Assembly (NCBI RefSeq): GCF_964194155.1
Contig: NW_027596099.1
Coordinates: 3,534,001-3,598,000 of the forward strand
Source of the DNA: Cetorhinus maximus
Taxonomy: Eukaryota
DNA length: 64,000 nt
Direction: 5' to 3'
The notes beneath the pieces are model-generated. The model was not told where the DNA came from. It made no database searches and was given only the letters and a program-made list of their open reading frames with translations. A program made the translations under genes and the position numbers. Positions 17,521 through 51,237 of the stretch are shown in pieces (the first letter of the stretch is position 1; every line of letters starts with the position of its first letter).

Positions 17521-17619
17521 TCAGCCTGTATATAACACTTGCTGATCAGCTGTAACGGCCGTGAAGCACTGGAAACAGCTGCCTGATTAGGGAAGGCGGC
17601 CCGGAGTTATCAAATTAAT

Positions 17620-18479: not shown

Positions 18480-18529
18480 GCCATTTCCATACCCCCACCC
18501 CCTGCTTAATTCCCAAATCTCATCCGCTA

Positions 18530-20490: not shown

Positions 20491-20499
20491 CTGAAGGAT

Positions 20500-21527: not shown

Positions 21528-21618
21528 CCCCCATCTCCCCCCGCCCCCCCCCCCCCCCCACCAACCCCCCCCCCACCCCCCCCCCCCGCCCCCCCCCCCC
21601 CCCCCCCCCGCCCCCCCG
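21528..21618. repeat. Poly-C tract (poly-G on the GPCR sense strand); similar tracts at 16606-16650, 46584-46690 and 61478-61517
   Basis: Direct reading. Confidence 0.9.
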
Positions 21619-22085
21619 CTGTAAGTATGAGAAAATACTGCAATTCTGGAAAATCTAGGTGTCTTTGTTCCCCCAGTGAGAGCAATTCTCCTCCATTGAA
21701 GATGAGCAATGAAATGAGAAAATATTGGAAGAGCTGAGTGATTCGGTTCCGTTCATAAGGACCCCTTGAACGCACTACACGTACTACACAGCCCCATCCC
21801 ACCTACACACCTCCGTGCCAGCTGGAGATATGAAATTCAATGACAGAATTCAGGAAACTCCACGTAATTTAATCCACCCAGATAACGAACCCACTCACAG
21901 ATCCCCAACAATCCCAACGCCCACCGCCATCCGCTGAAAAAGTTAGGTTAAATGTGAAAAGTCAGGAAGTTCCCTTTGATTCATTCCGCCTAGCGACAGA
22001 CCCATGTCCCCTGCTGGAAATGTGAAATTATGTTCTCGGAATGTCAGTGATTAAGCTCTTCTGATCATTGAACTAATTAAAGAAT

Positions 22086-22963
22086 TTAAGTGAAGGGATA
22101 TTTCAACATTTTCCACAACTGCTCCCTGAACTTAGTCTGTGTCACAGCATAAATCCAAGTGTTTGTGCAGCAACTCAGGAGCTGCAGCATGAAACCCAAT
22201 TCCAGAACAAAAAAATGTAGATACAGAGATTTAAAGCCTAAATCATACATCCGGAGCCATATGGAAAAAAACATTAACATTGCCCATAAAACGATGAAAT
22301 TGGCTGAAATGTAAAACAGTAACATGATCGCTTTCTTTCGATTGTCCACCTCTGGGTCCTTGGGGCTTTCCCCACTCCTGTGAGCCCGGAGTCTCCTGCG
22401 GGCCCTACTGGTCAATAAAACGTACTCGACGGTCAAAATATTGACGAGCAGGATGAGCACAAATGGGACACAAGGTGTTAGAATGTGATGGGTGAACTCG
22501 ATGGTTACCCAGACAGGAGAGAACAGAACCTCATCTGTGTAACCACAAAACGAGGGGAAATTTACCAGCCAGTACTGACCTGTGAGCAAAAAATACCAGA
22601 AAATGTTCTTTGAACAGCTCAGTGCCATCACGGTTCCCAGAATCACAGCTGCCGTTTTCTCACTGCAATATTTAGTTTTCAGCTTCGGGCAACAAATGGC
22701 CACAAATCGATCGAAGGTAAAAGTGACAGTGAACCACACAGAACAGTCAGTGGCTGCATAAAGCAGGACGGCGTGGATATTACACACGTTGATTGATTTC
22801 AGGAAAATAAAATACCTATCAAACACAATTGGAATATGCCTCAGTATCAGGTCCAGGATAATGACCAGTAGATCCGCCACTGCCATGGCCACCAGGTAAC
22901 GGGTAACACAATTGGAGAGGCCACACCTCCTGCGCCTGAGGATCACAATCGTGACTAGGTTCA
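22086..22963 (-). CDS. GPR139-like: Class A orphan GPCR (GPR139/GPR142-like) copy 1, exon 2 (TM1 end to TM7, stop)
   Basis: Open 878-nt exon after acceptor ctttctttgcAG (22965-22964). Motifs YLVAMAVADLL (TM2), SVWFTVTFTFDRFVAICCP (TM3), PCVPFVLILLVN (TM5), NFIVLW (TM6), CTNTWIY..TQTKFREQL (TM7/H8). TAA at 22088-22086. Confidence 0.93.
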
Positions 22964-24064
22964 CTGCAAAGAAAGGTAATACACGTCAAAACTATATATT
23001 ACTCTGGTACCAAAGTTGTCAGTATGATTGAGATGTGATGGAGATGTCTTACAGCATCCTCCGGTGTATTGAAATGAATGGTCCTGAAAGAAGATATAAA
23101 AAATGTCTGTGATACAGTGGTAGGCAGGATACAGTGAATGGTTAAAAGAAGGAGGTGTGAATAGGGTGGAGATGTGAGTTGCGGGTGAGCGGGAAATTTT
23201 GGGAGACAAATGAATGAAGGAGGAATCGGGGGATAATAGGTACACTTAGCGGTGATAGAGGCTCATGGAGTGGCCGGTGAGCGTGCAAATTACTGGAGGT
23301 ACCCATGGGTGTTGGTGGAACTCATGAGTGCGAGGGGAGACGCGTTTGAGTGAGAGGGGCCAGAGTTGATGATTGCGTTTAGTGCAAAGAAGAGAAATGG
23401 GGTAATTTATTCTGGTTCTCAACATATCTCCTGGCAGGAACGCTCTGCAGTTTTGCGAGGGACTGTTTCCTCCGTCTACTGATGTTATTATAAGAAATCC
23501 GAAGCAAGCTTTCTTGCGAATTATCAATTCAAATAAAAGGATAAACATCCGTTTCTTGTAAAATACGAAATGCAAATCATAACGACCACACAAACACTCA
23601 TAAACCCTCAAACAAAACTTGATGATTTGTTTAAATGTAGCACATACTTAAATTATTACGAGTGTAGAACAGGAACGGGTCATTCCTTATAATGCTTCAT
23701 GTGTTGATTGAAAACGTTGCAGGACTGAAGTGTTCGTTCCTCGGTGGTTGAAGACAAATGGAGTTTGTAAATATCTGGCTTTTAGTCTACAGTGTGGTGG
23801 AGCCTCTGTATTGAATAAATGTACTAACATGTAAAGCCTATCAGCCTCTTTTAATGCCTGAAATCCTCAAAAATGTCTCTAAAGGAATGTTATTTTGAAG
23901 TGTTCCTTACATCAGCAAGAGTCTCCCTGTCCTTGGATTCGGTGTTGGATTTCCATTGTCCAAACAATAAAATTTACGGTGTGAACAACTTCAGAAAAGG
24001 AAGCTATGTGCAAAGTGGATTCTTAGAGGGCACATGTAGACAACCTGTTAAAGGCGAAAACATC

Positions 24065-25125
24065 CAGGATATATCTTACCACAATCTCCTCTTCTCCTGC
24101 ATTGTCTTGCGGATTCCTGGTGACAATGCCTGTGTCCTTATGATGGTGATGATATGTAGGATGCAGCAGAACACTATGAACATGACCACCAGCTCCAGCG
24201 TGTACTGGAGGGAACACTCTGAACGGCTCAGGAAGCAGAAGCTTTTCTTTCCCACTTTGGCATTCTTATCAACAATGCTCGATGCGACTCCATTGCTCTT
24301 GGATTGAGATGTTATGTTCTCCTGCTTGGTTGGAGGTTGGGAATGGCGAAGGTGTGTTTTTTATTTGATCCACGCTCCGACGGAGCAGCCTTCAACTCCG
24401 AAAAGCTACTGGGTGGTTCTCTATGGAGCTACGAAGATGCTGGAACCGTCCGAGTGCTTCATAATGAAGCTATTGCGGCTCTAGTCAGGACATTGGATAT
24501 TCACCAACATGATGTACTGTGCATAGACATACATCAACTGGACATCAAGGCAGTGAGAATTCTTTGAGAGCCTTTAACCCTTTCGTTCTAATCGGGACAC
24601 GGCAGAATCACGTACGCCATCGGGAATCCCTCTGCCCTGGGAAACTATAGGATCGATCATTCTGCTTCTCACCGTTGAGTGAGCAACAGTACAAACGTGT
24701 CACACAGCATAGATGTTCTCTATCAGCTAGTGAATACACAGTTAGACAATATACAGGGAGATAATGAATATATCACCTGCCCCTGCCTGGAATCTTCCGA
24801 ATCGATCGAGGTTTCAATGACCCTGTAAACATAGTGTCCAAAGGCAGCACCTCCCTCACCCTGGTGTGCGGCCCCAGACCTGCTAAAGGAGGTGACACGT
24901 CTCTGTAACACCTAATTGTTCTGTCAGAGTTATATCCGTCTCTGCACATGTTTTAGGTGTAGGTTTGTAAAGTGTTGCTGACAATCCAGGGGTGCTAAGG
25001 GCAGAGCAACCCCCCTCCCTCCCAAATGTTAACAGGCGTTCCCTTCCCTCCTCACTCCGATCCTTTCACCAGTCATGGTACAGGTCCAGATGCACTGTAA
25101 CTACAGCCCCAAAACCTCTTCCATT
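24065..25125 (-). mobile_element. PIF/Harbinger DNA transposon transposase (HARBI1-like) remnant in GPCR copy 1 intron
   Basis: Minus strand frames (read mainly in the B paralog) give GRFQAGAGDI..ISQ, HCIDVQLM...PDKSHNSFI and KSFCFLSRSECSLQHTLEQVVIFIVFCCILH, matching Harbinger GSFQ..GD..ISQ, HSLNVQLV..PGS.HD.FI and KxRFRCLDRSGGxLQY..VVCCxLHN. Many stops. Confidence 0.8.
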
Positions 25126-26008
25126 GATGGGCCTATAAATCCTATTTCCTCTCTCAATGTATGCAGCCCCTCACAGCACAACACCCTGAAAACCATCTAC
25201 AGCACCAAAATGGACTTCGCAATAACAGAAGTCACTCAAACGCCCTTCGGCTGACAGTTAGATGTCTGGCCCGTTTCAGTTAAACTGGAGAGGGTGCCGT
25301 GTGTTGTTTAATAAACATTTAGCTGAGACTGATTAAAACAGGCTCTCGGTGGACAGGTACACACAGTGTTTCAAAGGCATGTCAAACATGCTGAAAACCC
25401 CTGCACAACATGGGGCACCATGTGTGAGTTTCAGGACATGGGATTGATTGGAGAAGTGAGATTAAAGCCTGATCAAATAACAGGATTTGGAATATTGAAA
25501 TTGACGGGCTGAATGACCTGGAAGCAATGTTGGCCCTTGAGCGCAGGGATAATGGTGGAATGAGAGTTGGCATGGGTTAGTTTACAGAAATCAGAGTTTT
25601 CTATGCGTTCTGTTTAAAGAAGTTTTGTAACTGCAATTGTCTGGCCAGATTAACATTTTAATAGCCGAGTCTGGCTTTGACAAATGCACAGCTGAGGGAC
25701 CTTTAGGGTGTTGTGCTGATGCAGCGTGGATAGTGGTCCAGGTTAAAAAGCTGGTAGAAGACAGGCTTAAGGATGGAAGGTGTAAGGGCACAGAATTCAG
25801 CTGAGGGCCAAATGGAGCGTGGCGGTCGAAGACAATATGGTTCAGGCTTAGATAGTGGCGCGGTAGGTGGGTGTAGCGACTGGATAGGGAACGATCATTA
25901 AAACGGGAACAGTAGCAAATGAATTCCACCTTCCTTAAATGTAAAAGACAGTAACAGTAATGCAGTCAATCTGGTTTAAAGAACAGATTGTTGCATATAG
26001 GTTCTTAC

Positions 26009-26183
26009 CGGTGACACCAAAAAGAGCCAGGATGGGAAAGTAACCCACTTGAATTACCGAAATTACACCCTCGATCCTCTCAGCTAATGATATCCGATCT
26101 TGAGAAAGATAGTAAAGCCCGGAGGATAAACTCCTTTCCATTTTTGTAAAATTCCAAGATTTTGTTCTAAGATTCTGATTCAT
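26009..26183 (-). CDS. GPR139-like: Class A orphan GPCR (GPR139/GPR142-like) copy 1, exon 1 (N-terminus, most of TM1)
   Basis: ATG at 26183 (A at -3), MNQNLRTKSWNFT... with an N-glycosylation sequon, YFPILALFGVT, donor G|GTAAGA at 26008. The phase-1 join to exon 2 gives GVTVNLVTIVIL; total 1053 nt = 350 aa + stop. Confidence 0.88.
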
Positions 26184-26317
26184 TGTTGTCACGTTCCGAT
26201 CTATTATTCTCAGATTCTGGTATTTTCTCTCCCACTCTCAAGAGTCGTTAATCCTTGCGAGTGCCGAATGCCACCTTCCCCCTGACATTAGGGAACCGCA
26301 CTTTGAAACGAGCCCCG

Positions 26318-26380
26318 TATAAATAGCAGAGTGAAACCCTCCTGTGACACAATTAGGATCCAGGGAGATTGAAATTAATT
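26318..26380 (-). promoter_or_regulatory. Putative GPCR core promoter: TATTTATA plus homeodomain-type TAATTG/AATTAATT sites; paralog 51372-51434
   Basis: TATA-like box ~135 nt upstream of the ATG, with CTAATTG (26356-26350) and AATTAATT (26373-26380); all retained in copy 2. Confidence 0.4.
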
Positions 26381-26659
26381 CCAGAGACTGAACAAACGGT
26401 TCAGTTAACGCGTTGCTATCCAACAATTTTTGTATCACAACATGGTAGAACATTTTCCTGGCCTGGACAGGATGTATGTGGATCGCCAAGGGAAGGAAGG
26501 CTGCGAATTGAGGTTTGACTGACCATGACATGTAAAAGCACCTTGGAGTGATATTCGAGGACGGGAGGATTGTAAGTGTTCTACGTTGTTTATAAAAGCC
26601 GATTACAAAGCAGAATGGAACCTGGATTGATGGCCTATTTTAAGAAATCATTTATTTTT

Positions 26660-28590
26660 AAAGCCTGGGATCCCTTACTGAAATAAGTTCACAGGAGTCT
26701 GATATGGTTTGCAAGACTCGCAAAAAATTTATAATTCATCATGGTCAAAATACAGCAGGCAACCAAACGTTTGGTAAGTTTTCATTACGGAGACCACGAA
26801 ATAAGTGGCAGAAACTCACGCTGCCCCTTTCATCCTACTAATGCCCTTATTAACCCAGGACACCAGCGACCAGGCACCATTATTTCTGGACCAAGGATAA
26901 AGATAGATCATTGGTAAAGAATTGATTTTCCAGTGGTCTTCTGAACATTCAATGGAAGCATTTGCACAATTGGCATCTCCCTTCAGATATCCAGAACGCT
27001 CAATCTAAATTCACCTCTCCTTTAGTGTTAGAGAATTATCCAAGAGTTCCTTAACAATCTGGCATCATGCCCAGTTGCAGAGAGACTGAGGCCTTTTCGT
27101 CGGGTCCTGACTCGTTGGCACGCTGATACCAACTGAAACTACAAGTTGATAGACTCCTTGTCTTTATGTATCTGTGCATCTCCCCCTGATCACCAGTTGA
27201 AAGTCAACAATGCAGTTTTATTTCCTACTTCTTGTTTTAGTTTTAACTTGCCTAAATCACCAATAACTTTGGGAGACAATCTCTTCATTTCAAGATTCGT
27301 AAAGCATTCATTAAAATGTATATATTCAAACAGTGCCCCAGGCTGGCCCGCTGAATGTCACAAAATCCCAAACTGAAAACATACCCGGGCTTCACATTTC
27401 AAATACAATTGTAGCTTGCCTAAAATTACATCTAGTTCCCATCACTTACCCCGCAAAATCAAGAAGAATAGAAAGGGTAACTTTAAGAGGCATTTTCATT
27501 TCATGTTAGCATCTCCTCTAATCACTAAATATATCTTATCTTCCAGCTTTTACTATAGCTGTAACAATGTACTTACAGCAAATGTGCAAGTCTTTTCCAT
27601 TAGAATCATATTCTATACAAGTCCATTTTAATCAAGGCGTTCTTCGTCCTCCATATTTGCTCTTGATAAAGCATCTGCTGTTACATTGTAACTTCCAGAG
27701 TTATGGCTGAGTTTTAAGTGGTAATTGATGCCCTTAAAATCCACCAAAATGGTATCAGCTTCTAGGAAGGATAATGGATTCTGGTCGTTATAAAATGATA
27801 ATTTCAGCAGAATTGTTCGATGAGTAGACTTCAACATGTTGTGCAGCCAGCACTATATTTAGATTATCCTTCTCACTTCTGAGTATTTAATCTGGTAAAA
27901 AAAAATATTTCCAGTAACGGTTCAGACTCGCCGTTCAATTCCCGTTTCGTCGCCCTGTGGTAAAATTGTTCCATTATTCACTAGCATCAAAAGCCAGTTT
28001 AAAAGGATTCACACACTTTGATGCTGCTAAAGCTGGTGGAGTGGTGAGTACAGCATTCAAGCTGCCAAAGGCACTTAGAACATCGTTTGTCCATTGAAAT
28101 CTTTTTGCTTTTCTATACCGAGGTTGCCAGGGGAACCACTACCGTGCTGAAATTCAGGACAAACATCCGATAAAATCCACGTATGCCAATAGACTATAAC
28201 AGCTCTCCATTAGTCTTAAGCACTGTCAATCCTAGATAACCCCTATGTTTGCTTTTCTGGAGATCACTTTGCCTTTTCATCACAGTTTGTCCAAAATCAA
28301 TCACTTTCGTTTTGGAAAATTGACTTTATGCAAAGTTTAGGACTAAATTGTGTTTTTGTAAACGACCAAACATACCATTCAATTGTTGTAAATGTCCCCC
28401 CTAAGCTCAGCTGAACACAACTAACTTCTCAATATACATATAACCCAGTTAAATAATCCTTCAATAACGCTGTTGCCTAACCATTAAAATGCTACTGCTG
28501 CGTTCTGCATTCCGAAAGGCATGACATTACGTTGAAAAAGCCCATTCGTGGTTACCAAATCTGATATTCATTTGGCCATTTCAGTGGACC
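26660..28590 (-). mobile_element. Gypsy LTR retrotransposon remnant: RT-RNase H (27630-28590), then 3'UTR/PPT and putative LTR starting ~27444
   Basis: GLFQRNVMPFGMQNAA..F, YIEKLVVFS (degenerate YIDD), DQNPLSFL...GSYNVTADALSR (ORF 27628..27837). LTR limits uncertain. Confidence 0.75.
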
Positions 28591-29149
28591 AGTTAAGCCA
28601 AACGTCAGATTGAAACCAGAGAGCGACCAACTCAGAATTAAACAACTTCACTTCTTGTAGTCACTTGTCAGGAACAGGAATAACTGCAAGGTTTGTATAG
28701 AAGTTTTTCTGAGCCATATCAACAGGAAGTTGCATTGTTAGTGTGAAGCAGTCGTGCTGTAGTTACTCTCCCTGTATTATGCTCTGAAGTGATATTTCCC
28801 GCCTTTTTCCAATCATATACCCGCGGGAACACCCTGGGGTCATTGACGTTCTGCCATAGTTAACTAGGGGAAAAAATGAAAAACAGATATTGAAATGTGT
28901 TAAATCCCGGTTGTGGAATACTTGCTATTTTTTAGAGTGTCTCTCTCAGTGCTGTTCGACTGACACTGGGTAATAGTTGTTTTCTATAAATGTGGATATT
29001 AAGTTTAGCGTTTCGCAGGGGCTAGGAATTGTAACACAGAACTAGAGATCTATGAACATCAGCAACTGATTCCACATGTCAGTATAATGGAGATTTGAAA
29101 ACTAACCGATCAACTCAAATTACTCCATTATCTCCACTAACAAGTACTC

Positions 29150-29960
29150 TTTGCCGCTTCAATACAGAGCTCAAATTCAAAGCAGCTCCTCGCACCGATA
29201 CAGGATCTTCAGCTGCAACAGTCAGTCTAACTAAGGAAAACTGATATCAGAATTCTAAGATGGACCCTGAAGCCAATATAGACGTTCCAAGCAATGAGAT
29301 TCTTCACCTGATGCATACCTTCCCCGCCAATTAAACCCACCAGCGCTGACAAACACATCCAACCGATAGAGAATGAACGACTGAAATAGACACTCTACCC
29401 GATATGGGGCCTCCAAGAGGTACAACTCCTTTAATCGATCCAGGCCTTCCAATTTATAAGGCCCTCCAATCGGTAGAGACCTTCAACTGATGCAATACCG
29501 TCCCCTGAGCCAAGAAAGGTCCTCCAGCCAATGAAGGTTCTCCAGCCAATACAGGTCATCCAGTCAATACAGATCCTCCAGCAAATAATGGTCCTCCAGC
29601 CAATGCAGGTCGTCCAACTGCTACAAACCCTCAAATAGATAAATACTTTCCACCGGACTCAGGCGCTCAATCCGACATGATTTTCTAACTGATATTAGCC
29701 CTCTAACAGTTGCAGATCCTCCAACTGAAATAAACCACGCCCAAAACATTACCGGTTTCAGACGAGAAATATCGAGACAGACACTTGCACAGATATTGTC
29801 GCTCAAGCTGATGCGGCCCCTCCAAGTGAACATCTATCACAAAACAGCACAAGTCTAATAACAGCTCCCCTGAAATTAATAGAGTTCACAGACTAGTCCT
29901 GAACTTAGTACAAACACTCAAATTAACAAGAGAACTCAAACTGAACTCCAAGATGATCAA
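29150..29960 (+). repeat. 18-bp periodic region (core 29503-29620, ~6.5 units tcctccagccaatacagg); paralog ~54225-55085 with ~8.5 core units
   Basis: Core translates GPPANE GSPANT GHPVNT DPPANN GPPANA GRPT; weaker periodicity extends on both sides. Confidence 0.8.
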
Positions 29961-30039
29961 AATTGTTAAGTTTTCGGGGTCAATGCTGAGAGGTTCACTC
30001 CTGCGTTGGATTTCTCATTTTATTCAATTCATGGCTTTG

Positions 30040-30542
30040 TGTGAGTAAGGAAATAGAGGCCATTCGAGCCTTAGAGCCTGTTCTGCCATTGAACCAGCTC
30101 AATACAAATATTCTGCCTGAAAACTCTTGTCCTGCCCTGTCCCCATATCCAACCTTGCACTTAGTATCACAAGATCTATCGAAACCAGCCTTGAATATAC
30201 TCAATGACTGATCATCCACAGTCCCTAGGATAAAAAATTTCAAGGAATCTCAACCCTCGGAGTGAACAAATTTCTCCTAAACTCACACTCGGAATTACCG
30301 ACCCCTTACCCGAGACATAGACCTCTAGTTATAAACTCTCCAGTCGAGGGAAACAGCCACACACCATCTACACTGGCAAATACATTAAGAATGTTATACG
30401 TTTCACTGAGGTCACCACTCACTCTTCGAAGTTCCAGAATAAAACCGCCGATTTTACTCAACCTCTCCTCATGGAAGCTCCTGCTCGTAACAAATCTATT
30501 GAAAATTGTTGCATCCTCTCAAAGGGGCGTATCTGCTTCCTT
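30040..30542 (-). mobile_element. CR1 LINE 3' end fragment; paralog ~55165-55664
   Basis: aggccattcgagcc..gagcctgttctgccatt and agccttgaatatactcaatgac are the reverse complement of the CR1 3'UTR/ORF2 end. Confidence 0.75.
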
Positions 30543-31499
30543 TGTCACGGAGGCTGATAAATTTCACCGTCGACCCAGCAATTCTCCGGGACTGAGTGTG
30601 GAGAGAGCAGCAGGATGACTGATGGAAACCGACCCCATGCACTCGCTTCTCAATGCACACGTTTATTCACAAAAGTGAACATTTCAAACAGATCTAATAC
30701 AAACTTTAACCCTGAATTCCCCTGTGTCATTCACTGGGATTGAGGAAACCGTATATGGGGCTGCGGACGTGCTGAGCTTGGTGCAGAGCGAGGAGAGTTG
30801 CAGGGTTCATCATGGAAAATATCCCTCACATTTGACGCCGGTCTCCCCGGCAACTCAGGCCCCCTCTCGCTGCTCACATTTCGTGGGCATCTCAGCCAAT
30901 GTCCATACATTGGAAGTCATTGTCCCCGAAGGCAGAGTTACACTTGGGGCACTTGCGCTGCAACAGGTCGGTGCGGATTCTTGATTTATTCAAAACACAA
31001 GACTTGGAACCACTTGGTCAGCGCGATGTCCTTTCTCTCATTTCCACAGCAGGCAGTAGCCTGAAGTTGAGAGACGGGAGTTAGAATAACACAGAGTGAT
31101 GTTTCCCAGGCAGCTTCTCATCCTCTCAAAACAAGGTTGTCCCAGATAATATGCCCCCGCCCCATCGGAAATAGGTCAATAATTTGGAAAATGGACCGTT
31201 TCAGCCTCGCCCAAACCCGAGGACATTACATTCACCTTTCTACGTAATAACCCCAGGAAAATGGACGGAGAGTAGCCCGTCCCAAATATCAATTTATAAA
31301 ATGGAAATGAGGGTCCCCATTAAATTGTTACCAACCCACCGACCCCATAATCGACTCATGTAGCCATGTAACACTCCTCTCACTAAGACACTGTCCGAGA
31401 CCAAATCCCTCCTCTTCCAGAGTTCATATTCAAACGTGTAATCCAAGTTTGAAATGGGCACAGGAAAGTATTTTTTTCCATAAGGGAATGAAGCGGTCA
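30543..31499 (-). mobile_element. Putative solo LTR-like element; paralog 55665-56619
   Basis: Abruptly interrupts the CR1 with TGTCACGG (..CCGTGACA on minus). AATAAA on minus at 30667-30662; purine tract AGGGGAGGGAGG just upstream of TG at 31499. Confidence 0.35.
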
Positions 31500-31649
31500 T
31501 GCCTCCCTCCCCTGTGATCCCTTGATATGGACTGATTTATCATTCCATCCCTTACCCTGGAATATCGGGAGACCTCTCTCCAACCGCTAGGTAAATTAAC
31601 CATTCAACACATCCTGGTCTATGGACCAATCGTGATCTGTTGCACTGAA

Positions 31650-32560
31650 AAATGAATGACAGCATCTACCAAAACGCAGATGCATCCTATTCCACCATAC
31701 CATTCCAACCGATCTCTCCACAATTACAATCACGCTCCCAATTCACCCATTGCCGTAATGCCCTCTCTCCACATCCCTCTAAACCATTGCAATTATCCTC
31801 CACCAGTCCACACTACATTTCCCATTCCGCCATTTCAGTGCCCTCCCAATTCTCACATCCCCAACATAACCCCTCCCGCTTTTCCATTCCCTGATAACAA
31901 TTACTCTGACTAGCCCCAACCCATTCTAATCGACCTAATTCTCAAACTTTGTTTTCCCCCTCCCCACTCCAACGCCCCACCTTAACCGCATTCCTGCTCA
32001 CAACACTTCCGTTTCCCCCTCCCCACCTCCTTCGCCCATCCACACTTACTTATTCAACCTTCTCCCATCCTTTCTCAACATTACACCTTACTACATTCCC
32101 AATTCCCCTGCTGCGATTCTTTTCCATTCCAACCTCCAATATCTCTACCACGCCCCTCATCCCCTCTTCAGTCAAACACCCCAGTCAACCAATTGATTTT
32201 CCTCTGCTATTCCCCTGACCATTCCTATTTTCCCTCCCTCTTCCCAAACTTCCCGCCTGACATCTTTCCTACCCTTTGTATTGGGCCTTTCTCCTATTCA
32301 ACTTTTCCCAGTGTCACGCCCCCGCCCTCGATTGATCATCACCATTCTCCTCCCATTTTCATCCTCCCAATTAAACTTTTCCTATTCTGCCACTTCAAAA
32401 CTCCTCCCCCATTCTCCCATTCATTATCCTCATTCCTCAACTCCCCATTCTCCTTCTTCATTTCTCCCTTCCCATCCCCCTTCATCAATTATCCCTTCCC
32501 TTTAACTCTCCTGTTCCCCACCCCGCTTCCTCCCTTCTCCATCATCTCACTTTCCAGTTG
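31650..32560. repeat. G-poor pyrimidine-rich low-complexity tract; paralog ~56770-57680
   Basis: Direct reading; produces P/S/F-rich spurious ORFs. Confidence 0.8.
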
Positions 32561-32864
32561 TTGTTCGGCCATGGGTTCTGGGCAATGCTCATTAGGCAGC
32601 ATTTAATGCTCGTCCTTAATTGCCCCTGAGAGTGGCTTCTGCGCTGCATCCTTGAACCGCTGCATTAAATGTTTTGAAGGTGTACACATGTGGCAAAGAG
32701 ACACAGATATCGAGACACTGAGGCAGACAATTGCAGGCAGCAGCGGGTCATGCTAAATAGATGGAAGTGAGGACAGGCACTGCTGATGCTATTGACTGGA
32801 ATGGTTCCAGGTCAGAGAGACTTGAGTCACGTGGATTGTTTTAAGAAACCGGCACTGTTACCCT

Positions 32865-33270
32865 TATAGAAAAGAAGGTGAGTGGATTTGAAAGAGGTGT
32901 TTAAAATCATGACATTTTTCGATCAGAGGAGATGGAGAGAAAATAATCCCATTTCGGAGGAAGCGAGAACCATACGAGAGCAAATTATGTTTGCAGCCAA
33001 AAAAGAAAAAGAAAATCGGAAGTGAGAAGAGGAAAAACATTTTTAATTCAGCGAGTGGTTAGTGTATATAAAGCAATGTTGCACATATGATGGAGGGAGT
33101 TTTGATCATAGTTTTCAAGAGGCAATTGGTCTTGAGCTTGAAATGGGAATATTTACTGGGCTACAGGGGAAGGGCGGAGGACGGGGACCAGATGAATACC
33201 ATTTGCAGGCAAGCAAAACAGGTGTGAAGAGCTGAATGTCCTCCATTCGCCCCGTAAACATTCCATGATT
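32865..33270 (+). mobile_element. CR1 LINE 3' end fragment (truncated at 58077 in unit B)
   Basis: gaggtgtttaaaatcatga...aacatttttaattcagcgagtggtt...gctgaatgtcctcc...ttccatgatt: CR1 terminal pattern. Confidence 0.7.
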
Positions 33271-41400: not shown

Positions 41401-44400
41401 GAGATACAGGATAACCCAACGGGGCAAGAGCACAATCTATTTCTCTAGAGCTACGGAACAACATAGATGTGATTACATTTCGTTATCTACATGTCACCAA
41501 CAAGTGGGAGGGATGTGGTGGAAGAATTTGGAAAGGAAATTATAGGGAGGTGCAAACATTGTAGAATGTTTAAAATGAGGGAGTTCAATTACTGGAATGT
41601 AGACAGGGATAGTAGCAGTTCCTAAATTATGCTCTGGAAATATTTGTACTGCATTGTGTTTCCAGTTGCAAGAGAAGTGAAGCACTGCGGGACCTCATTC
41701 TTGGAAATGATGTGTACAAACTGGATCAAAATTCTGCAAGAGTCCTTGTACAGATTCACTGAACCAGAATGTTTAGGCTAATTGCGGAAAAGGTCAATGC
41801 TGACTATTGCTGATTAATCCCTGCCTCACCAAACGGAAGTTAATCCACTCCCAGAGAATGTTTTTCCCTAAAGTTTCCCTACCCCTGATTTTGGATTCTC
41901 CAGTTTAAAGCTCTCTGGATTATCCCTGGATTATCGGCAACTGATTTGAATAATGATACCCCATTCGCTGGCCATTAGTCATCTGGGACTCTCCTGAGGC
42001 GAGGCTGGATTTTGAAATTAATGTTAGGGACCCTACAATCTCCTTCCTTGCCTTGCACAGCAGCCTGGAAAACATCTTACCTGTGTCTGGGGATTTATCT
42101 ATTTCAAAGTCAGCTAAAACATCTAATATCTCCTCTCTCTCAATCCTAAATTGTTCAAGTACATCACAGTCCAGGACCCTAATTTCTATGCCAAAATTGC
42201 CCTTCTCTACGTTAAATACAGATGTAAGGTGCACATTTAAAAGCGCATCTACGTTTCCCAAGTCCACACACAAATGGCCAATGTTGTCCCTAATGCGTGC
42301 TGCTCTTTCCCTGCTTATCCTCTGGACCATAACATGCTTATAAAACGCCTTTTAGCATTATTTTATTTTACCATCCAGTGTTTTCCAATGCCCCCTCCTC
42401 CTTCTCTTAATTTCCTTGTTTAGGTAAACACAAACACTTTCCATATTCCTCTAGGACTTCCGCTGTTTGGAGCCCTCGGCTTCCACGAGGAGCTTCCTAT
42501 GTATCCTTATCCAATCCAGTACATTCCTCGAAATCCAGGGCTCTCTGGAATATTTTGTCCCCACACTCTGACTATTTCATTTATGCAAGACTCCCTCTGC
42601 CTTGATGCAGGTTTTTGGACAATTGGATGCTCCCAGTCCATTTTGCCAGGATCGTGTATTAAATTATTAAAAACAACCTCACCCAAATTCAGGAGCTTTA
42701 TATCTGGTACATTTTAGCCTTCTCAATATCTACCTTAAATCTTTCTCGATTATGGACATAATCAGCAAAACTCTTCCCCTTTAAAACTTCTAACATTAGC
42801 CCAGCGTTGTTCCCAAATGCTAGGCCCAGCACCGCTCCATTTCTTGCGGGATTCATATCTTCCGGATAAAAAAACTTCCCTGGGTACATTTTGAAAATTC
42901 TGCCCCCTCTAAGCCTTCCACAATTTGTATATCCCAGTTCATAGGGGGAAGTGGAAACGTCCTACTATTTTTACCCTGTTATTTTTACACTTCTCTGAGA
43001 TTTGCCTACATATCTGCCTTTCTATCTCTCTGGCTGTTTGGGGGTGGCAACGTGATTGGCCCCTTTTGAAGTTAAGGTCAAACCTCAAGGCCTCATCTGA
43101 GGAACCTTCTAAGGTATCATCCTTCCTCTTTGTAGCAATTGAATCATTGAGCAATGTTGTGATACCAACTCCTCTATTCCGACCTCCCTACCCCCAACGC
43201 CAGCCTCATCTCGACTGTGGATTCCGTACCCAGAATATTGAGCTGCCAGCCCTGCCCTTTCCTTCACCAGATCCCTGTGGGAGGAAAAGTAAAATATTCC
43301 CTGGTGTTAATCAACACCCTCAATTCATCTGGCCGGCTCACAGGACTCCTTGCATTAAAATCAGTGCCATCCATCCTTGCTATGCTCCTTTGTGCCTTAA
43401 CTTAAATATATACTCCCTGTCTTCCCGCTGACTTGGTTTTTATTCTATACTTGGCTGTAAATCACATCTTACTTTACATCCACCCTGTGTCCTATCCCAT
43501 TGCCAAATTAGTTTAAACCCGCACCAACAGCACCAGCAAACGTCCACTCCCCAGCTGCAATACCTAATAGGCTGAGTGAATCGTTTCACCTGGTTAAACT
43601 TTCCGATTGGACGAGGTGGCTTTCAATAACGGGGTGCGTGAATTAATAGAGTGGCCGTGGAGATGGGGGTTTGGGGTAGTGGTTGTGTGAGTGACTGGGT
43701 GAAGCTCCATCTTGGCTGTGCTGCCTGTCAGACAGGGGGCGGAGCTCCTGATTTGGCTGAGTCTCTGAATTCTGTGCGTAACCGATACTTCACCAGGGTC
43801 TTTAACTGCTGTCTGATCTTGGACTGACTCACCGCATAAATTAACGTGTTTGTGCAGCAACTTTAATTCATCAGCATAAATTCGGCACGGATACGGCGTA
43901 TGTGAATGGCTCCCGCGCTCTCAGACTTTGCCTGTATTCTCAAAGATTTGCGAACCCGTTTAATCCTTAAAAGCAAATTCCAAATTTTCCACACATATCT
44001 CGATAATTTAGTCAACCTCTCATTGAGCACAATCGGCAATCTTTGATATAAAGCTCCATGTTGCTGCATCAGGGATTTATGTGCATTTTACTGAACTGGC
44101 AGCTGAGGCTGCAGAACAGATCCTGGGTTAACATGTTCAGTCACATCCGAACGATTGGAGGACACCCCCTTTCTTCCAAATGTCTGTCTCCCACTTTTAA
44201 GTTCTTCCATATCCGGGCCCATAGGGCGCTCCCAATTCCATTCAACCCTAAAATCTACCTCCTTTATCAGGGAAGAATCGATATGAATTAGCAGACGAGA
44301 ACGGCACAATAATACGGATAGGTCCATTTATTTTCAATGCTTGAACTGATTTAAAGAACAGGACAACTACCACTCTCGGATATTCCTCATCAGGAGACTG

Positions 44401-47153
44401 GAGTCGATTTGAAAGGACAGACAGTCACCATTCCCTGCATCCTGACAGAGGGAAACCGTTCCAAATCTAATTTTACAGGGAAAATCCACGGCTGCCCTCT
44501 CCTGAAATCCCCACAAAAGTCACCGTTGGAACGTTCAGGGTGACCAGAAAGCGACACAGAGGACGGCAGAAGCGCGAATATAAGTTTCCCCCTTCCCTCC
44601 CAGGTTTCTAAAAGCTGGTTAGCCTGTGATGGTCATTATCAAAGGGGAGCGAAACGGTGCCAGGGGACATAATACATTGGATTAGCTCTCTTGATATTCA
44701 AAAGTGGCAGTCTGTATTTCAATGTAACAGTGATTAATAGTCTGACTGAGTGTCGTTATTCTCCTGACAATGTCATTGTCAAAAAGGGTCCTAGAATGAC
44801 TGAGTACAGGGATCGAATCCAACTCGCCTGTCAGCAAACCCTCAGCTCGACTGTTGCTTTCCAATTTTACCAGCTGGCTCTCTGATCGAGCAGAATGATA
44901 TGTTTAACGTCACAATCGCAGCACGGGGTCAGGATTTCCTCTACTTTTCAATGCAGTGAGTCTAGTGACTTCTCCTAAGACACTTCCAGACAGGTTAGCC
45001 TTCTGACATTTCACGTTTCCTGGCAGATTACATTGACTGGGGGACGAATCTTTTGACAAAATATTGTTATATGGAATAGTGTAACTCAATTGCGTTCCAA
45101 TGCAGTACTGATGGATTTCTGCACTGTCGGATTGCCTGTACTGAATCGTACTACGATATCTGTGTTTCAGTACTGAGGAATTGCTGCACCACCAGAGAGT
45201 CAGCGCAGAGGGAGCAAGACACCGTCAGAAGCATCAATGCTGGAGCAGAGCTGAATTGCCGGATGGTTGGTACAGGTCAAGTGCTGCGTTGTTGAAGGAT
45301 CAGTACTGAGAGAGTGCTGCAATTTTGAAGAGAGGGATAGGGTGAGGCAAGTACAGGGAGAGAGGGTGAAAGACAGAGATCTTGAGAAAAATAAAAATAG
45401 AGGTAACGGAAGGCGAGAGTAAGAGAGAGGCTAAGAGAAAAAGCCGGACAGCAGTGATGGAGCGCTGCACTGTCGATGGGTCAGTACGAAATAATGCTGC
45501 TCTGTCAAATTTCAAAACGGAGGGAGTACTGCACTGTTACAGGGTCAGCAGCGAGGGATTATTTCTGTTTAGCTGTGTCTCCATCTCGCCCTCTCTCAGT
45601 TCCTCTCACCTTCCTGTTATCTATTTTTTTTCTTTCTTTCTCAACATCTGTCTGTCTGTCTCTCTCTCATTCTCTGTCCTTCTCTCACCCTATCCCTCTC
45701 TTATCTCCTTTTCGCCTCCCCTACCCTGTCACTCAATGTCTCCCTCTCTCCCTCTCCTATTGCCCGTCTCTCCCTTTCTCACTGTTGTTCTCTTCCAGCC
45801 TCTAATTCTCTCTGTATCTCTTTCTCGCTCTCTCTCTTTCCGTTCCTCTCCATCCCAGTATGTTCATCTCTCACTATGCCTCCACCTCTCTCTCTATCAG
45901 CCTATTTTTCTCTCCCCCACTCTCACTCTTTCTATCTCTTTTTCAACCCCTCTTAGTCTTTCTCTGTCTGTTAAGCAACCTGCCTCTTTATCTCTCTCAC
46001 TCTATGTGTCAATCTGCATCTCTTTTAGGGAGATCGAGATCCGGTTGTGCCGTCTGGCCCCACACACACATCCCAAATCCACTGCAACGCCCCCCGCCTT
46101 TCTGCAGCTGAATTGAATCCCACTTCCTTTATAAACAATAGCATCCAGTGGGAGCTGGTCTGCTGCCCAAGCACTGATTTCCTATGATACCTCACTTTCA
46201 CTTTGTTATCTTACTTCCTTGTTGGTTACCCTAATTCTACGCTGTGACCGCACCTCCCCTGACAAGACAGCACCACGTCAAACTCTGCCATTCCATTTTG
46301 GTTTCCAATCACGTGTTGGATGGAGTATTCGTGTCCAATCACTGAGAAGCAGTGGACCGTTGCACAGGCTATTTTGGAAGTAGGCTATCAGTGGTTTAGT
46401 TTTCTTTCAATCAGTGCGAGAGATAAGGATAATGGACATATCTTGTGGGCAATGGAATTGTGGAAATGGCTGGAGCTGTGTTTCCTGCCCTTCCTGTGAG
46501 AGGGATGGTGGACAATGGGCTTTGCATTCCTCCAAAGGGATGGGAGAAGCTGGTCAGTGAGTGAACATTCTCGACCTCCATTCGCCCCCGCAACCAAACC
46601 CACCCCCTGCCCCCCCAAGCAGCCCCCCCACCCCCCGCACCCCCCCCCCCACCGCCCCCCCCCCCCCCAAACACCACCACCCCACCCCCACAGCTGTAAA
46701 TAAGGGAAAATGCTTTACTTCTGGAAAATCATGTTGTCTTTGTTCCGCCAGTGAGAGAAATTTTCCTGCTTTCAAACTGAGCAATGAAATGAGATAATAT
46801 TGGAAGCGCTGGGTGATTCCGTTCCGTTGATACGGAACCCTTAATCACACTACACACACCCATCAAACCCCACTCCCCCGATCCAGCTGGGAACGTTAAA
46901 TTCATGAGAGAATTTAGGAAACTTCTAGTAATTCAATCCTGCCGGATACTTAACACACTTCCCCTCCCCGACAGCCCCACCCCATCTCCCAGACCCATAC
47001 GCTGGAAACGTTAAGGCAAATGTTAAAATTAAGGAAGTTCGCATTGATTAATTCTGCCCAGTGACAGACACATGTCCCCTGCTGCAAATGTGAAATAATG
47101 TCCTAGAAATGCCAATGATTCAGCTCTTCAAATCATTTAACTAATTAAAGAAT

Positions 47154-48031
47154 TTAAGTGAAGGGATATTTCAACATTTTCCACAACTGCTCCCTGAACT
47201 TAGTCTGTGTCACAGCATAAATCCAAGTGTTTGTGCAGCAACTAAAGAGCTGCAGCATGAAGCCCAATTCCAGAACAAAAAAATGTAGATACAGAGAATT
47301 ATAGTTTAATTCATCCATTCGGCTCCATATGGAAAAAAACATTAACATTGCCCATAAAACGATGAAATTGGCTGAAATATAGAACAGTAATATGATCGAT
47401 TTCTTTCGATTGTCCACCTCTGGGTCCTTGGGGCTCTCCCCACTCCTGTGAGGCCGGAGTCTCCTGTGGGCCCTGCTGGTCAATAAAATGTACTCGACGG
47501 TCAAAATATTGATGAGCAGGATGAGCACAAATGGGACACAAGGTGTTAGAATGTGATGGGTGAACTCGATTGTTACCCAGACAGGAGAGAGCAGAACCTC
47601 GTCTGTGTTACCACAGAACCAGGGGAAATTTACCAGCCAGTACTGACCTGTGAGCAAAAAATACCAGAAAATGTTCTTTGAACAGGTCAGTGCCATCACG
47701 GTTCCCAGAATCGCAGCTGCCGTTTTCTCACTGCAATATTTAGTTTTCAGCTTCGGGCAACAAATGGCCACAAATCGATCGAAGGTAAAAGTGACAGTGA
47801 ACCAGACAGAACAGTCAGTGGCTGCATAAAGCAGGACGGCGTGGATATTACACACGTTGAATGATTTCAGGATAATAAAATACCTATCAAACATAATTGG
47901 AATATGCCTCAGTATCAGGTCCAGGATAATGACCAGTAGATCAGCCACTGCCATGGCCACCAGGTAACGGGTAACACAATTGGAGAGGCCACACCTCCTG
48001 CGCCTGAGGATCACAATCGTGACTAGGTTCC
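47154..48031 (-). CDS. GPR139-like: Class A orphan GPCR (GPR139/GPR142-like) copy 2, exon 2
   Basis: Open 878-nt exon, acceptor AG 48033-48032, same 7TM motifs, TAA 47156-47154. Confidence 0.93.
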
Positions 48032-49132
48032 CTGCAAAGAAAGGTAATACACGTTAAAACGATATATCACTCTGGTACCAAAGTTGCCAGCATGATTGAT
48101 ATGCGATGGTGATGTCTTACAGCATCCTCCGGTGTATTGAAATGAATGGTCCTGAAAGAAGATATAAACAATGTCTGTGATACAGTGGTAGGCAGGATAC
48201 ATTAAATGGTTAAAAGAAGGAGGTGTGAATAGTGTGGAGATGAGAGTTGCAGGTGAGCGGGACATTTTGGGAGACAAAGGAGCGAAGGAGGAATCGGGGG
48301 ATAATAGGTACACTTAGCGGTGATAGAGGCTCATGGAGTGGCCGGTGAGAGTGCAAATTACTGGAGGTACCCATGGGTGATGGTGGAACTCATGAGTGCG
48401 AGGGGAGACGCGTTTGAGTGAGAGGAGCCAGAGGTGATGATTGCGTTAAGTGCAAAGAAGAGAAATGGGGTAATTTATTCTGGTTCTCAACATATCTCCT
48501 GACAGGAACGCTATGCAGTTATGCGAGGGACTGTTTCCTCCGTCCACAGATGTTATTATAAGAATTCCGAAGCGAGCTTTCTTGCGAAATATCAATTCAA
48601 ATGAAAGGATAAACATCCGTTTCTTACAAAATACGAAATGCAAATCATAACGACCCCACAGACACTCATAAACCCTCACCCAAAACATGATGATTTGTTT
48701 AAATGTAGCACATGCTTAAATTATTACGAGTGTAGAACAGGAACAGGTCATTCCTTACAATGCTTAATGTGTTGGTTGAAAACGTTGCAGGACTGAAGTG
48801 TTCGTTCCTCGGTGGTTGAAGACAAATGCAGTTTGTAAATATCTGGCTTTTAGTCAACAGTGTGGTGGAGACTCTGTATTGAATAAATGTACTAACATGT
48901 AAAGCCTATCTGCCTCTTTTAATGACTGAAATCTTCAAAAATGTCTCTAAACGAATGTTATTTTGAAGTGTACCTTTTATCAGCAAGAGTCTCCCTGTCC
49001 TTTGATTAGGTGTTGGATTTCCATTGTCCAAACAATAAAATTTACGTTGTGAACAACTTCAGAAAAGGAAGCTATGTGCAAACTGGATTCTTAGCGGGCA
49101 CATGTAGACAACCTGTCAAAGGCGAAGGCATC

Positions 49133-50195
49133 CAGGACATGTCTTACTGCAATCTCCTCTTCTCCTGTATTGTCCTCCGGATTCCTGGTGACAATGCCTG
49201 TGTCCTTATGATGGTGATGATATGAAGGATGCAGCAGAACACTATGAAAATGACCACCTGCTCCAGCGTGTGCTGGAGGGAACACTCCGAACGGCTGAGG
49301 AAGCAGAAGCTTTTCTTTTCCACTTTGGCATTCTTATCAACAATGCTCGATGCGACTCCATTGCTCTTGGATTGAGATGTTATGTTCTCCTGCTTGGTTG
49401 GAGGTTGGGAATGGCGAAGGTGTGTTTTATTTTGATCCACGCACCGACGGGGCAGCCACAAACTCCGAAAAGCTACTGGGTGGTTCTCTATGGAGCTACG
49501 AAGATGTTGGAACCGTCCGAGTGCTTCATAATGAAGCTATTGTGGCTCTTGTCAGGACATTGGATATTTACCAACATGATGTACAGTGCATAGACATACA
49601 TCAACTGCACATCAATGCAGTGAGAATTCTTTGAGAGCCTTTAACTCTTTCGTTCTAATGGGGACACGGCAGAATCACGTACGCCATCGGGAATCCCTCT
49701 GCCCTGGGAAACTATGGGACCCATCATTATGCTTCTCACCGTTGAGTGAGCAACAGTACAAACGTGTCACACAGCATAGATGTTCTCTGTCAGCTAGTGA
49801 ATACACAGTTAGACCAAATATTGGGAGATAATGAATATATCACCTGCCCCTGCCTGGAATCTTCCGAATCGATCGAGGTTTCAATGACCCTGTAAACTTA
49901 ATTTCCAAAGGCAGCACATCCCTCACCCTGGTGTGCGGCCCCAGACCTGCTAAAGGAGGTGACACGGGTCTGTAAAACCTCATTGGTCTGTCAGAGTTAA
50001 ATCCGTCTCTGCAGATGTTTTACGTGTAGGTTTGTAAAGTGTTGCTGACAATCCAGGGGTGCTAAGGGCATGGCAAACCCCCTCCCCCCGCAAATGTTAA
50101 CAGGCGTTCCCTTCCCTCTTCACTCCTATCCTTTCACCAGTCATGGTACAGGTCCAGATGCACTGTGAGTACAGCCCCAAAACCTCTTCCAAGGT
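49133..50195 (-). mobile_element. PIF/Harbinger transposase remnant in GPCR copy 2 intron
   Basis: ORF 49144..49461 contains KSFCFLSRSECSLQHTLEQVVIFIVFCCILH; upstream frames give GRFQAGAGDIFIISQ. Confidence 0.8.
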
Positions 50196-51062
50196 TGGGC
50201 CTATAAATCCTATTTCCTCTCTCAATGTATGCAGCCCCTTACAGCACAACACCCTGAAAACCATCTACAGCACCTCAATGGACTTCGCAATAACAGAAGT
50301 CGGTCAATAGCCCTTCAGCTGACAGTTAGATGTCTGGCCCGTTTCAATTAAACTGGAGAGGGTGCCGCGTGTTGTTTAACAAACATTTAGCTGGGGCTTT
50401 CGGTGGACAGGTACACACAGTGTTTTAAAGGCATGCCAAACATGCTGAAAACCCCTGCACAACATGGAGCACCATGTGTGAGTTTCTGGACATGACATTG
50501 ATTGGAGAAGTGAGATTAAAGCGTGATCAAATCACAGGATTTGGAATATTGAAATTGACGAGCTGAAAGACCTGGATGCTTTGTTGGCCCTTGAGCGCAG
50601 GGATAATGGTGGAATGAGAGTTGGCAAGGGTTAATTTACAGAAATCAGAGTTTTCTACGGGGTATGTTTAAAGAAGATTTGTAACTGCAATTGTCTGGCC
50701 AGATTAACATTTTAATAGCGGAGTCTGGTTTTGACAAATGCACAGCTGAGGGACCATTCGGGTGTTGTGCTGATGCAGCGCGGATAGTGGGCCATGTTAA
50801 AGAGCTGGTAGAAGACAGGCTTAAGGATGGAAAGGGTATGGGCTCAGAATTCAGCTGAGGGCCAAATGGAGCGTGGCGGTCGAAGACACTATGGTTCAGG
50901 CTTAGATAGTGGCGCGGTAGCTGGGTGTAGCGACTGGATAGGGAACGATCAATAAAACGGGAACAGTAGCAAATTACTTCCATCTTCCTGAAATGTAAAA
51001 GACAGTAACAGTAATGCAGTCAATCTGGTTTAAAGAACAGATTGTTGCATGTAGGTTCTTAC

Positions 51063-51237
51063 CGGTGACACCAAAAAGAGCCAGGATGGGAAAGTAACCC
51101 ACTTGAATTACCGCAATTACACCCTCGATCCTATCAGCTAATGATATCCGATCTTGAGAAAGATAGTAAAGCCCGGAGGATAAACTCCTGTCCATTTTTG
51201 TAAAATTCCAAGATTTTGTTCTAAGATTCTGATTCAT
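51063..51237 (-). CDS. GPR139-like: Class A orphan GPCR (GPR139/GPR142-like) copy 2, exon 1
   Basis: ATG 51237, 175 nt, donor GT 51062-51061; the join gives GVTGNLVTIVIL; 350 aa total. Confidence 0.88.

Follow-up and report, generated by a model that had tools for sequence, protein, structure and literature searches.

What kind of receptor genes make up the tandem array found in the 64,000 nucleotides of Cetorhinus maximus DNA studied here (the window), and are they extra copies of GPR139, as automatic labels would have it, or something else? The initial annotation had described two intact 350-aa, two-exon G-protein-coupled receptor (GPCR) genes with clean GT/AG sites and no frameshift, repeated about every 25 kb, and exon coordinates and translations confirmed this description. 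Both genes, A and B, lie on the reverse strand of the same array, with 25,068 nt between their stop codons. In gene A, exon 1 (26009..26183) encodes the N-terminus, with one N-glycosylation sequon at residue 11, and most of TM1, and its start agrees with the N-termini of homologs; an intron of 3,045 nt (22964..26008) is located directly ahead of N1.50, and exon 2 (22086..22963) runs from the end of TM1 through helix 8 to the stop codon. Gene B is built in the same way, with exon 1 at 51063..51237, an intron of 3,031 nt at 48032..51062, and exon 2 at 47154..48031. Both introns are GT..AG introns in phase 1, neither reading frame contains a premature stop or an indel, and the two coding regions differ at 39 of 1,053 nt.

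Both products belong to class A. The second exons matched Pfam 7tm_1 (E 5e-16 for A and 4e-14 for B; 59.4 and 53.3 bits, with a cut-off of 30.5), and the structure predicted from exon 2 of gene A (pLDDT 85.7, pTM 0.84) contains seven helices and helix 8, with TM1 split by the intron. The class A motifs D89 (D2.50), DRF, P225 (P5.50), W285 (W6.48), NTxxY, and the C119/C198 pair (C3.25-ECL2) are present; P6.50 and P7.50 are replaced in both genes, the latter throughout the family. The exon-2 frames of A and B are the longest of the 76 stop-free frames of at least 100 aa in the window. Ten frames were scanned against Pfam: these two matched 7tm_1 and the other eight had no match, and four of five further short pieces of the window gave sub-threshold matches only. 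The open reading frames and these scans are consistent with the earlier statement that A and B are the only intact genes in the window. An Rfam scan returned no matches.

Self-BLAST resolved the window into three related tandem units with approximate limits at 5813..32955, 32956..58072, and 58073..64000. The third runs off the end of the window, and a third gene would be expected in it beyond that end. Identity is 90.5% between 18821-32955 and 43896-58078, and 85.6% between 7342-16606 and 34302-43556. Apart from the receptor genes, the units consist mostly of decayed repeats. Units 1 and 2 have in common a younger block, which in unit 1 spans 22070..32955 and contains the gene, its intron, and 6.8 kb of upstream DNA; it is about 6% diverged between the units, and the DNA directly downstream is 16% diverged. 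The change point falls at 22047-22087, at the stop codon. We also found three relics of the same family in the window, all on the reverse strand, that had no place in the initial annotation. One, covering TM7 and helix 8 (17939..18067; HMM E 7e-9), is cut upstream by an insertion; the second, covering TM6 to helix 8 (43776..44045; HMM E 8e-13), has an in-frame stop; the third, from the end of TM1 to TM3 (753..1034; E 1e-7), has two stops and its best match in a more distant subfamily (45% to P0447, E 4e-14). The first two show that units 1 and 2 each comprise one intact gene and one relic.

Are these genes GPR139? By sequence, the human GPR139 is the best solved-structure match (E 7e-8), and the profile search gave the same result (E 6e-27, with the next family at 2e-17). 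By fold, GPR139 (7vug, TM 0.71) leads TRHR by a small margin only. GPR139 is thus the nearest characterised receptor by all three measures, and a position near the GPR139/142 branch, as originally suggested, is upheld; the next solved relatives are the neurotensin, PrRP, and neuromedin U receptors. In both A and B, the GPR139 agonist pocket F109/H187/W241/R244/N271 reads Y/H/W/L/F, that is, the hydrophobic trio is held in common (F109 replaced by Y, H187 and W241 kept), whereas E108, R244, and N271 of GPR139 are L, L, and F. In contrast to GPR139, the window genes lack P6.50 and possess C3.25 together with a Cys in ECL2, and the family has dozens of copies per shark genome where GPR139 has one.

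It is extremely improbable that the array arose by local duplication of a true GPR139 or GPR142, or that it is an artefact of assembly. The former would agree with the top solved-structure match and with the RefSeq label 'probable/putative GPR139' carried by 116 of the 117 named matches among the best 120 of 1,935. However, identity to human GPR139 is 20%, the polar pocket residues and P6.50 are lost, and the genes occur in multiple copies nested deep within a shark/ray clade; we rejected orthology on these grounds, in agreement with the initial annotation. An artefact was likewise rejected, since the units are 6-16% diverged and carry numerous indels, in a three-way pattern unlike that of a collapsed or doubled assembly.

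Of 2,553 candidates in the family search, 1,935 clusters reached E<=1e-10, and all 117 species-named entries among the best 120 of these were sharks. Before counting, P0003, P0004, P0043, P0068, P0090, and P0111 (fused or unnamed models) were dropped from the near set, and P0391-P0394 and P0415 from the far set. Counted at <90% identity as predicted gene models, which may include unexpressed copies, there are at least 65 distinct genes in Heterodontus (from 75 rows) and at least 53 in Heptranchias (from 68 aligned rows). With two intact genes and three relics in 64 kb of the basking shark, these numbers are far from one or two copies of GPR139, and the birth-and-death cluster of a lineage-expanded family proposed at the outset is supported by the intact tandem copies, the relics, the mosaic units, and the size of the family.

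In the trees, which cover neither GPR139 nor GPR142 (none of the 390 collected proteins was a true member of either by a motif check), the window genes fall well inside a shark/ray clade of 43 rows, and its subfamilies are common to sharks and rays. The first tree left out 10 partial representatives. An amphibian lineage also labelled 'probable GPR139' is the sister group of the shark/ray family (99/99), with one row per species in 14 species; these rows scored partly because the query included an amphibian protein. The shark/ray clade is thus not purely elasmobranch in origin. The amphibian genes (e.g., P0249 from Pleurodeles and P0418 from Xenopus) and the shark/ray family have a DPEM-type ICL3 motif in common (11 of the 14 amphibian genes), but the amphibian pocket is almost invariant and identity to gene A is 25-28%. 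A conserved low-copy GPR139-like lineage (P0244/P0260/P0347), found in teleosts, sturgeon, coelacanth, amphibians, turtles, and two sharks and 26-33% identical to gene A, forms a separate clade (100/99) that excludes the window genes, and its pocket is conserved. Among the 240 matches listed (the best 120 of 1,935 and 120 of 1,295), there were no family members from chimaera, lungfish, coelacanth, gar, or lamprey.

Additional vertebrate lineages of the GPR139/142 branch have been described before: GPR210A and GPR210B as related non-mammalian orphans in the available part of PMC6504862, and 'Orphan 139-like' as a further orphan tabulated in that of PMC5207463. They resemble the shark/ray family in this respect, the conserved low-copy lineage is a further lineage of this kind, and the same parts of the two papers do not name the shark expansion. 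In the literature searched, which was mostly non-subscription, we found no account of the expansion, and it may be mentioned elsewhere.

Do the copies have a function, or were they merely carried along? Under passive amplification, transposon-rich segments would take the genes with them by unequal crossing-over, and most copies would be silent and heading for loss. The decayed repeats and the relics are in keeping with such a process, as is the overall dN/dS between A and B of 0.65, which is not significantly below 1 (P 0.24). Furthermore, at about 6% divergence chance could well leave a frame intact: the probability of no indel between the two coding frames is about 0.09, so that the absence of indels is by itself weak evidence of constraint. 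However, the nonsynonymous difference in the helices, inner loops, and helix 8 is 0.017 (10 changes in 580 sites, P<1e-6), compared with 0.063 in the intron and upstream DNA, and by this measure purifying selection has acted strongly on the helical core since A and B were duplicated. The younger block, with its gene and upstream DNA, ends exactly at the stop codon, subfamilies are common to sharks and rays, and the activation motifs are fixed over 210 paralogs. We therefore regard passive amplification as decidedly improbable. On the sequence evidence, genes A and B are very probably functional young members of a large shark/ray class A GPCR family.

The changes between A and B are concentrated outside the core. 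Of the 21 amino acid differences in exon 2, 12 fall within the 55 extracellular-loop residues out of 291 (Fisher P 5e-5; extracellular versus inner loops, P 0.011). The rate in ECL1 and ECL2 equals the neutral one (0.063), and only ECL3 lies above it. A hot spot at the top of TM6 and ECL3 (codons 295-303, 22230..22256 on the reverse strand; ~47298-47324 in gene B) holds nine differences in 27 nt, with six amino acid changes, and none of 5,000 random placements reached nine. We considered positive selection on the loops and dropped it as a firm claim, because only ECL3 is above neutral, the region was chosen post hoc, and a short patch converted from an older paralog could explain the excess equally well (P 0.22 against the 16% rate).

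Variability among older members was examined at 16 GPR139 pocket positions, compared by mean entropy with the other helix positions; this set excludes Y33 and L36, which lie outside exon 2, and F83, for which the numbering did not match, and I184 is gapped in the conserved lineage. In 96 shark/ray paralogs, pocket entropy is 2.40 bits versus 1.12 elsewhere in the helices, a difference not reached in any of 20,000 draws. Both controls are reversed: 0.05 versus 0.42 in the 14 amphibian genes, and 0.56 versus 0.85 in the conserved lineage, represented by 25 genes picked by hand, at a similar overall divergence (62% versus 58% identity). Among the 114 rows of the subfamily to which A and B belong, the deep pocket hardly varies, and pocket and other helix positions, at 0.81 and 0.56, do not differ significantly (P 0.08). 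D2.50, R3.50, P5.50, N5.58, W6.48, and Y7.53 are practically invariant (98-100%) in each of the two shark/ray sets.

This pattern fits a ligand-diverse repertoire, in line with the initial proposal. A simple sensor of Trp or Phe is weakened and was rejected, because R244 and N271, which bind the amino-acid backbone in a GPR139 model (PMC5430874, in the part available), are Leu and Phe here. Known activators of the GPR139/142 branch are aromatic or amidated peptides (PMC8557429), and the ligands of the repertoire are probably peptide-like. The retained Y3.33/H5.42/W6.48 pocket would accommodate an aromatic group of the ligand, whose variable part would touch ECL1-3.

Pockets that differ between old subfamilies are also expected for receptors of different internal hormones. 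If the members were the animal's own neuropeptide or hormone receptors in brain, pituitary, or gonad, with old subfamilies for different internal ligands and largely redundant young copies, one would understand why GPR139, followed by the neurotensin, PrRP, and neuromedin U receptors, is the nearest relative with a solved structure, why the deep pocket varies so little in the subfamily of A and B, and why the pocket of the amphibian sister genes is invariant, as expected of a dedicated hormone receptor. Yet the distinct 16-residue pocket strings (70 in 75 rows of Heterodontus and 60 in 68 of Heptranchias) far exceed the need of a hormone system, and pseudogenes are frequent, with three in the window alone. 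Such frequent pseudogenes are unusual for endocrine receptors. We consider this explanation improbable, and a functional, ligand-diversified repertoire very likely.

The mechanism that we favour is as follows. The family would grow by tandem duplication and unequal exchange and lose copies as pseudogenes. In the substitution and entropy statistics, the G-protein activation machinery stays fixed while the ligand pocket varies between old subfamilies and the pocket rim and extracellular loops vary between young paralogs. The ligands, most likely peptides or molecules resembling them, may thus differ from member to member. Signalling would probably proceed via Gq/PLC, as in GPR139, and olfactory or solitary chemosensory cells may use the repertoire to sense cues from outside.

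OR, TAAR, V1R, V2R, T2R, the MRGPRs/FPRs, and nematode srw show the same evolutionary pattern as the shark/ray family, namely tandem clusters, pseudogenes, and a pocket that varies while the signalling core stays fixed. They are homologous to the window genes only at the class A level, and unlike in these repertoires the coding region is interrupted by an intron in TM1. There was no Pfam match to OR, V1R, V2R, T1R, T2R, or TAAR, none of which was among the 60 solved-structure matches listed; the Srw Pfam family was found in 12-69% of the members of neighbouring Atlas clusters.

The same signature of variable pocket and loops on a constrained core is also predicted by an immune or tissue-sentinel repertoire, in which leukocytes, granular cells, or nociceptors would detect microbial, parasite, or damage peptides in the niche of the MRGPRs and formyl-peptide receptors. 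MAS1 and its relatives are missing from cartilaginous fishes according to the available part of PMC8455134, the catshark expresses even its OR-like genes in spleen and at further sites outside the nose, and the loop hot spot would suit a host-pathogen arms race. Ancestry gives no immune lead, however, since the profile search placed chemokine receptors well behind GPR139 (E 4e-15 for CCR1 versus 6e-27). We judge this alternative unlikely, though of some weight. The 50 most olfactory-specific genes of the catshark include no GPCR in the portion of PMC11979771 considered here, and this list is weak counter-evidence to a chemosensory role because V2Rs are also missing from it.

The full chemosensory reading of the repertoire seems to us nearly evenly balanced, slightly on the doubtful side. 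Rather unlikely, and offered tentatively, is its widest form, a further large vertebrate chemoreceptor family that elasmobranchs recruited from the GPR139/FMRFamide-receptor branch, exceeding all known elasmobranch olfactory families together, sparsely expressed in olfactory or solitary chemosensory cells, and detecting peptides in parallel to nematode srw; to the same tentative degree, this family would have gone unnoticed behind the automatic label 'probable GPR139'.

The available part of PMC8455134 calls cartilaginous fishes GPCR-poor, and at least 53-65 members per genome with a diversified pocket contradict that description. Cartilaginous fishes also have many olfactory neurons, yet 20-62 olfactory receptor genes in total (PMC10869828), and the shark/ray family offers a testable answer to this discrepancy. 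The low-copy amphibian sister gene provides a handle on the ancestral ligand. If the chemosensory reading is true, the family would be a rare vertebrate case in which a neuropeptide-receptor branch was turned into a repertoire.

Gene A and gene B, the two intact class A GPCR genes of units 1 and 2, lie on the minus strand, and each consists of two exons separated by a GT..AG intron in phase 1. In gene A, the intron (3,045 nt) lies between exon 1 (26183-26009) and exon 2 (22963-22086); in gene B, it is 3,031 nt long and lies between exon 1 (51237-51063) and exon 2 (48031-47154). Both predicted products are 350 aa in length; of the 1,053 coding nucleotides, 39 differ between the two genes, and 25 amino acids are changed. 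The gene models therefore agree with the initial annotation, which described two intact 350-aa two-exon genes with GT..AG introns, repeated in tandem within otherwise decayed units. Self-comparison confirmed the tandem repetition of gene-bearing units: the array comprises three units of 25-27 kb, and unit 3 is cut by the window end. Of the 76 stop-free frames (≥100 aa) in the window, the two exon 2 frames are the longest, and they were the only ones with a Pfam match among the 10 scanned. The remainder has the look of decayed repeats; one instance is a reverse-transcriptase remnant at 1702-2600 (Pfam RVT_1 over 1702-2499, E 0.0016, below the cut-off). Three decayed relatives of the family had been overlooked: TM7/helix 8 relics at 17939-18067 (unit 1) and 43776-44045 (unit 2), and a TM1-TM3 relic at 753-1034.

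The unit 1 relic is broken by an insertion of about 750 bp (18066-18820), absent from unit 2, that contains a 50-bp minisatellite (18145-18478). A segment of about 1.1 kb (16607-17731), found only in unit 1 and beginning with a poly-C run, gave no match in the Pfam scan; it resembles a LINE remnant. The same 65-bp minisatellite occurs ahead of unit 1 (2896-3446) and where unit 2 begins (33486-33903), and an inverted repeat (409-495 / 602-688, 84% over 87 bp) adjoins a 209-base assembly gap (about 188-396). In both genes, a degenerate 21-bp tandem repeat extends across the start codon (26162-26219 and 51216-51273); its expansion may be the origin of the longer N-terminus in the window genes' subfamily.

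Units 1 and 2 diverge by about 6% over the gene, the intron, and 6.8 kb upstream, and by 16% directly downstream, with a sharp step at 22047-22087, the stop codon. The remaining unit pairs diverge by 10-15%. Because the divergence steps between about 6% and 16% at the stop codon, the units are mosaics, and the pattern suggests that unequal exchange or conversion shaped them, with its point of resolution where the coding sequence ends. Such mosaic divergence speaks against an assembly artefact; that the array is one, or that its genes are true GPR139 orthologs, is extremely improbable. Among solved structures, human GPR139 ranks first both by sequence (E 7e-8) and by profile (E 6e-27; next, 2e-17), and also, by a narrow margin, in the fold comparison (TM 0.71). 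However, identity is only 20%, and the window genes lack P6.50 and carry C3.25, the numbers following the Ballesteros-Weinstein scheme. With pocket residues taken from PMC5430874 (in excerpt), F109, H187, and W241 of human GPR139 correspond to a kept trio of Y, H, and W, whereas E108, R244, and N271 are replaced by L, L, and F; therefore, the polar residues that would contact Trp/Phe in the GPR139 model are lost. These differences bear out the earlier proposal that the genes are not the GPR139 ortholog.

The intron and upstream DNA of the two copies, which served as the neutral reference, differ by 6.3%. Across the helices, helix 8, and the inner loops, 580 nonsynonymous sites hold 10 differences (1.7%, P<1e-6); synonymous divergence is 5%. 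Judging from these sequences, genes A and B are under selection, although the whole-gene dN/dS of 0.65 is by itself not significantly below 1 and the lack of indels between the frames has a chance P of about 0.09. Passive amplification of gene copies is accordingly weighed as very unlikely. The extracellular loops (55 residues) take 12 of the 21 exon 2 amino-acid changes (P 5e-5). ECL1 and ECL2 diverge at the neutral rate, and codons 295-303 contain six amino-acid changes, with 9 of 27 bases differing (0 of 5,000 random placements). The ECL3 patch may equally have come from selection or from a short conversion by an older paralog.

A search with exon 2 against clusters at 90% identity gave 1,935 clusters at E<=1e-10 among 2,553 candidates, and 109 representatives at E<=1e-30 after 50% clustering. 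In the best 120 of the 1,935, all 117 rows with a species name were from sharks (10 species), 116 of them were labelled 'probable/putative GPR139', and identity to the window exon 2 was mostly 67-75%. In whale shark, 10 of the 13 listed rows have one scaffold size in common, as do 11 of the 25 listed from Heptranchias, which suggests genomic clusters. Some homologous protein models (P0003, P0004, P0043, and P0391-P0394) are over-long, and P0003 visibly repeats its C-terminal part; they are probably fused neighbouring tandem copies. After rows were collapsed at 90% identity, at least 65 distinct predicted genes of the family remained in Heterodontus (from 75 rows) and at least 53 in Heptranchias (from 68 aligned rows), both lower bounds from lists of the best 120 matches, as expected for the lineage-expanded family suspected initially. 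A profile built from five deep members found, in the best 120 of 1,295 matches, 105 shark and ray rows and 14 amphibian rows from 14 species.

A tree of 65 rows was constructed without true GPR139/142 and rooted with five long outgroup rows. The conserved lineage, a separate low-copy GPR139-like group, formed one clade (support 100/99), and so did the amphibian genes (100/100), placed as the sister group (99/99) of the shark/ray family, whose 43 rows had support of 95/93. Within this family, rays were spread over several subfamilies, and the window genes fell inside a subfamily of sharks (100/100), with a loose placement near catsharks and Mustelus. Each species contributes one or two rows to the conserved lineage (e.g., rows P0244, P0260, P0347, and P0358), which spans teleosts, sturgeon, coelacanth, amphibians, turtles, and two sharks; no mammal or bird was found among the best 120 of its 131 rows. 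Its zebra shark model carries the name of a TMEM183A isoform, which hints that the gene adjoins TMEM183A. This lineage may correspond to GPR210A or B, the names that PMC6504862 (in excerpt) gives to additional relatives of GPR139/142 in bony vertebrates. The amphibian sister gene (rows P0249, P0418, and 12 more) has one row per species, a near-invariant pocket, and N at 2.50, and is a candidate dedicated peptide receptor.

Pocket variability was compared between 16 positions from the GPR139 paper (PMC5430874, same excerpt) and 153 other helix positions. Across 96 paralogs from sharks and rays (mean identity 58%), mean entropy was 2.40 bits in the pocket versus 1.12 bits elsewhere, which was matched by 0 of 20,000 random draws; with 25 subsampled paralogs, the values were 2.16 versus 1.02 bits. 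As controls, 25 hand-picked conserved-lineage genes (62% identity) gave 0.56 versus 0.85 bits, and the 14 amphibian genes gave 0.05 versus 0.42 bits. D2.50, R3.50, P5.50, N5.58, W6.48, and Y7.53 were 98-100% fixed in both shark/ray sets. Within the window genes' subfamily (114 rows), the deep pocket was largely fixed (0.81 versus 0.56, P 0.08), and positions 5.43, 6.58, 7.32, and 7.35 and the three outer loops were the most variable. We read this as two tiers, in which old subfamilies would have different pockets and young paralogs would adjust the rim. Such variation would suit ligands, for example peptides, that share an anchor and differ in the rest of the molecule. That the receptors serve internal peptides, with redundant copies, seems quite unlikely.

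It is highly likely that the family is functional and forms a birth-and-death repertoire whose ligands are diverse and peptide-like, comparable with MRGPRs, FPRs, and srw. The GPR139 branch as a whole responds to aromatic or amidated peptides (PMC8557429, in excerpt), and by analogy with GPR139, for which Gq coupling is described (PMC6443882, in excerpt), the receptors might signal via Gq. The most likely role of the putative repertoire is chemosensory, a tentative assignment with a little less than an even chance. In the catshark, the top 50 olfactory genes include no GPCR according to the available sections of PMC11979771, which counts against a nasal role; V2Rs are likewise missing from that list. 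An immune or sentinel repertoire in place of MRGPR/FPR-type receptors, a rather unlikely reading, would fit the lack of MAS1 relatives in cartilaginous fishes (PMC8455134, in part).

Cartilaginous fishes have 20-62 olfactory receptors (PMC10869828, in excerpt), a paucity of GPCRs is stated in the available part of PMC8455134, and 'Orphan 139-like' appears in a table of PMC5207463 (in excerpt). No GPCR passage was found in the accessible part of PMC10620051, and no mention of the shark/ray family in the available sections of PMC11979771 (11 and 13 included) or in the supplements of PMC8455134 (12 of 24 files) and PMC13188829 (8 of 8 files). Our literature search, mostly without subscription papers, found no published account of the expansion, and an earlier mention is possible. 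The genes themselves are already in public annotations, labelled GPR139. The feature is real; it is a large repertoire of receptors that comes from a neuropeptide-receptor branch and has apparently not been described before.
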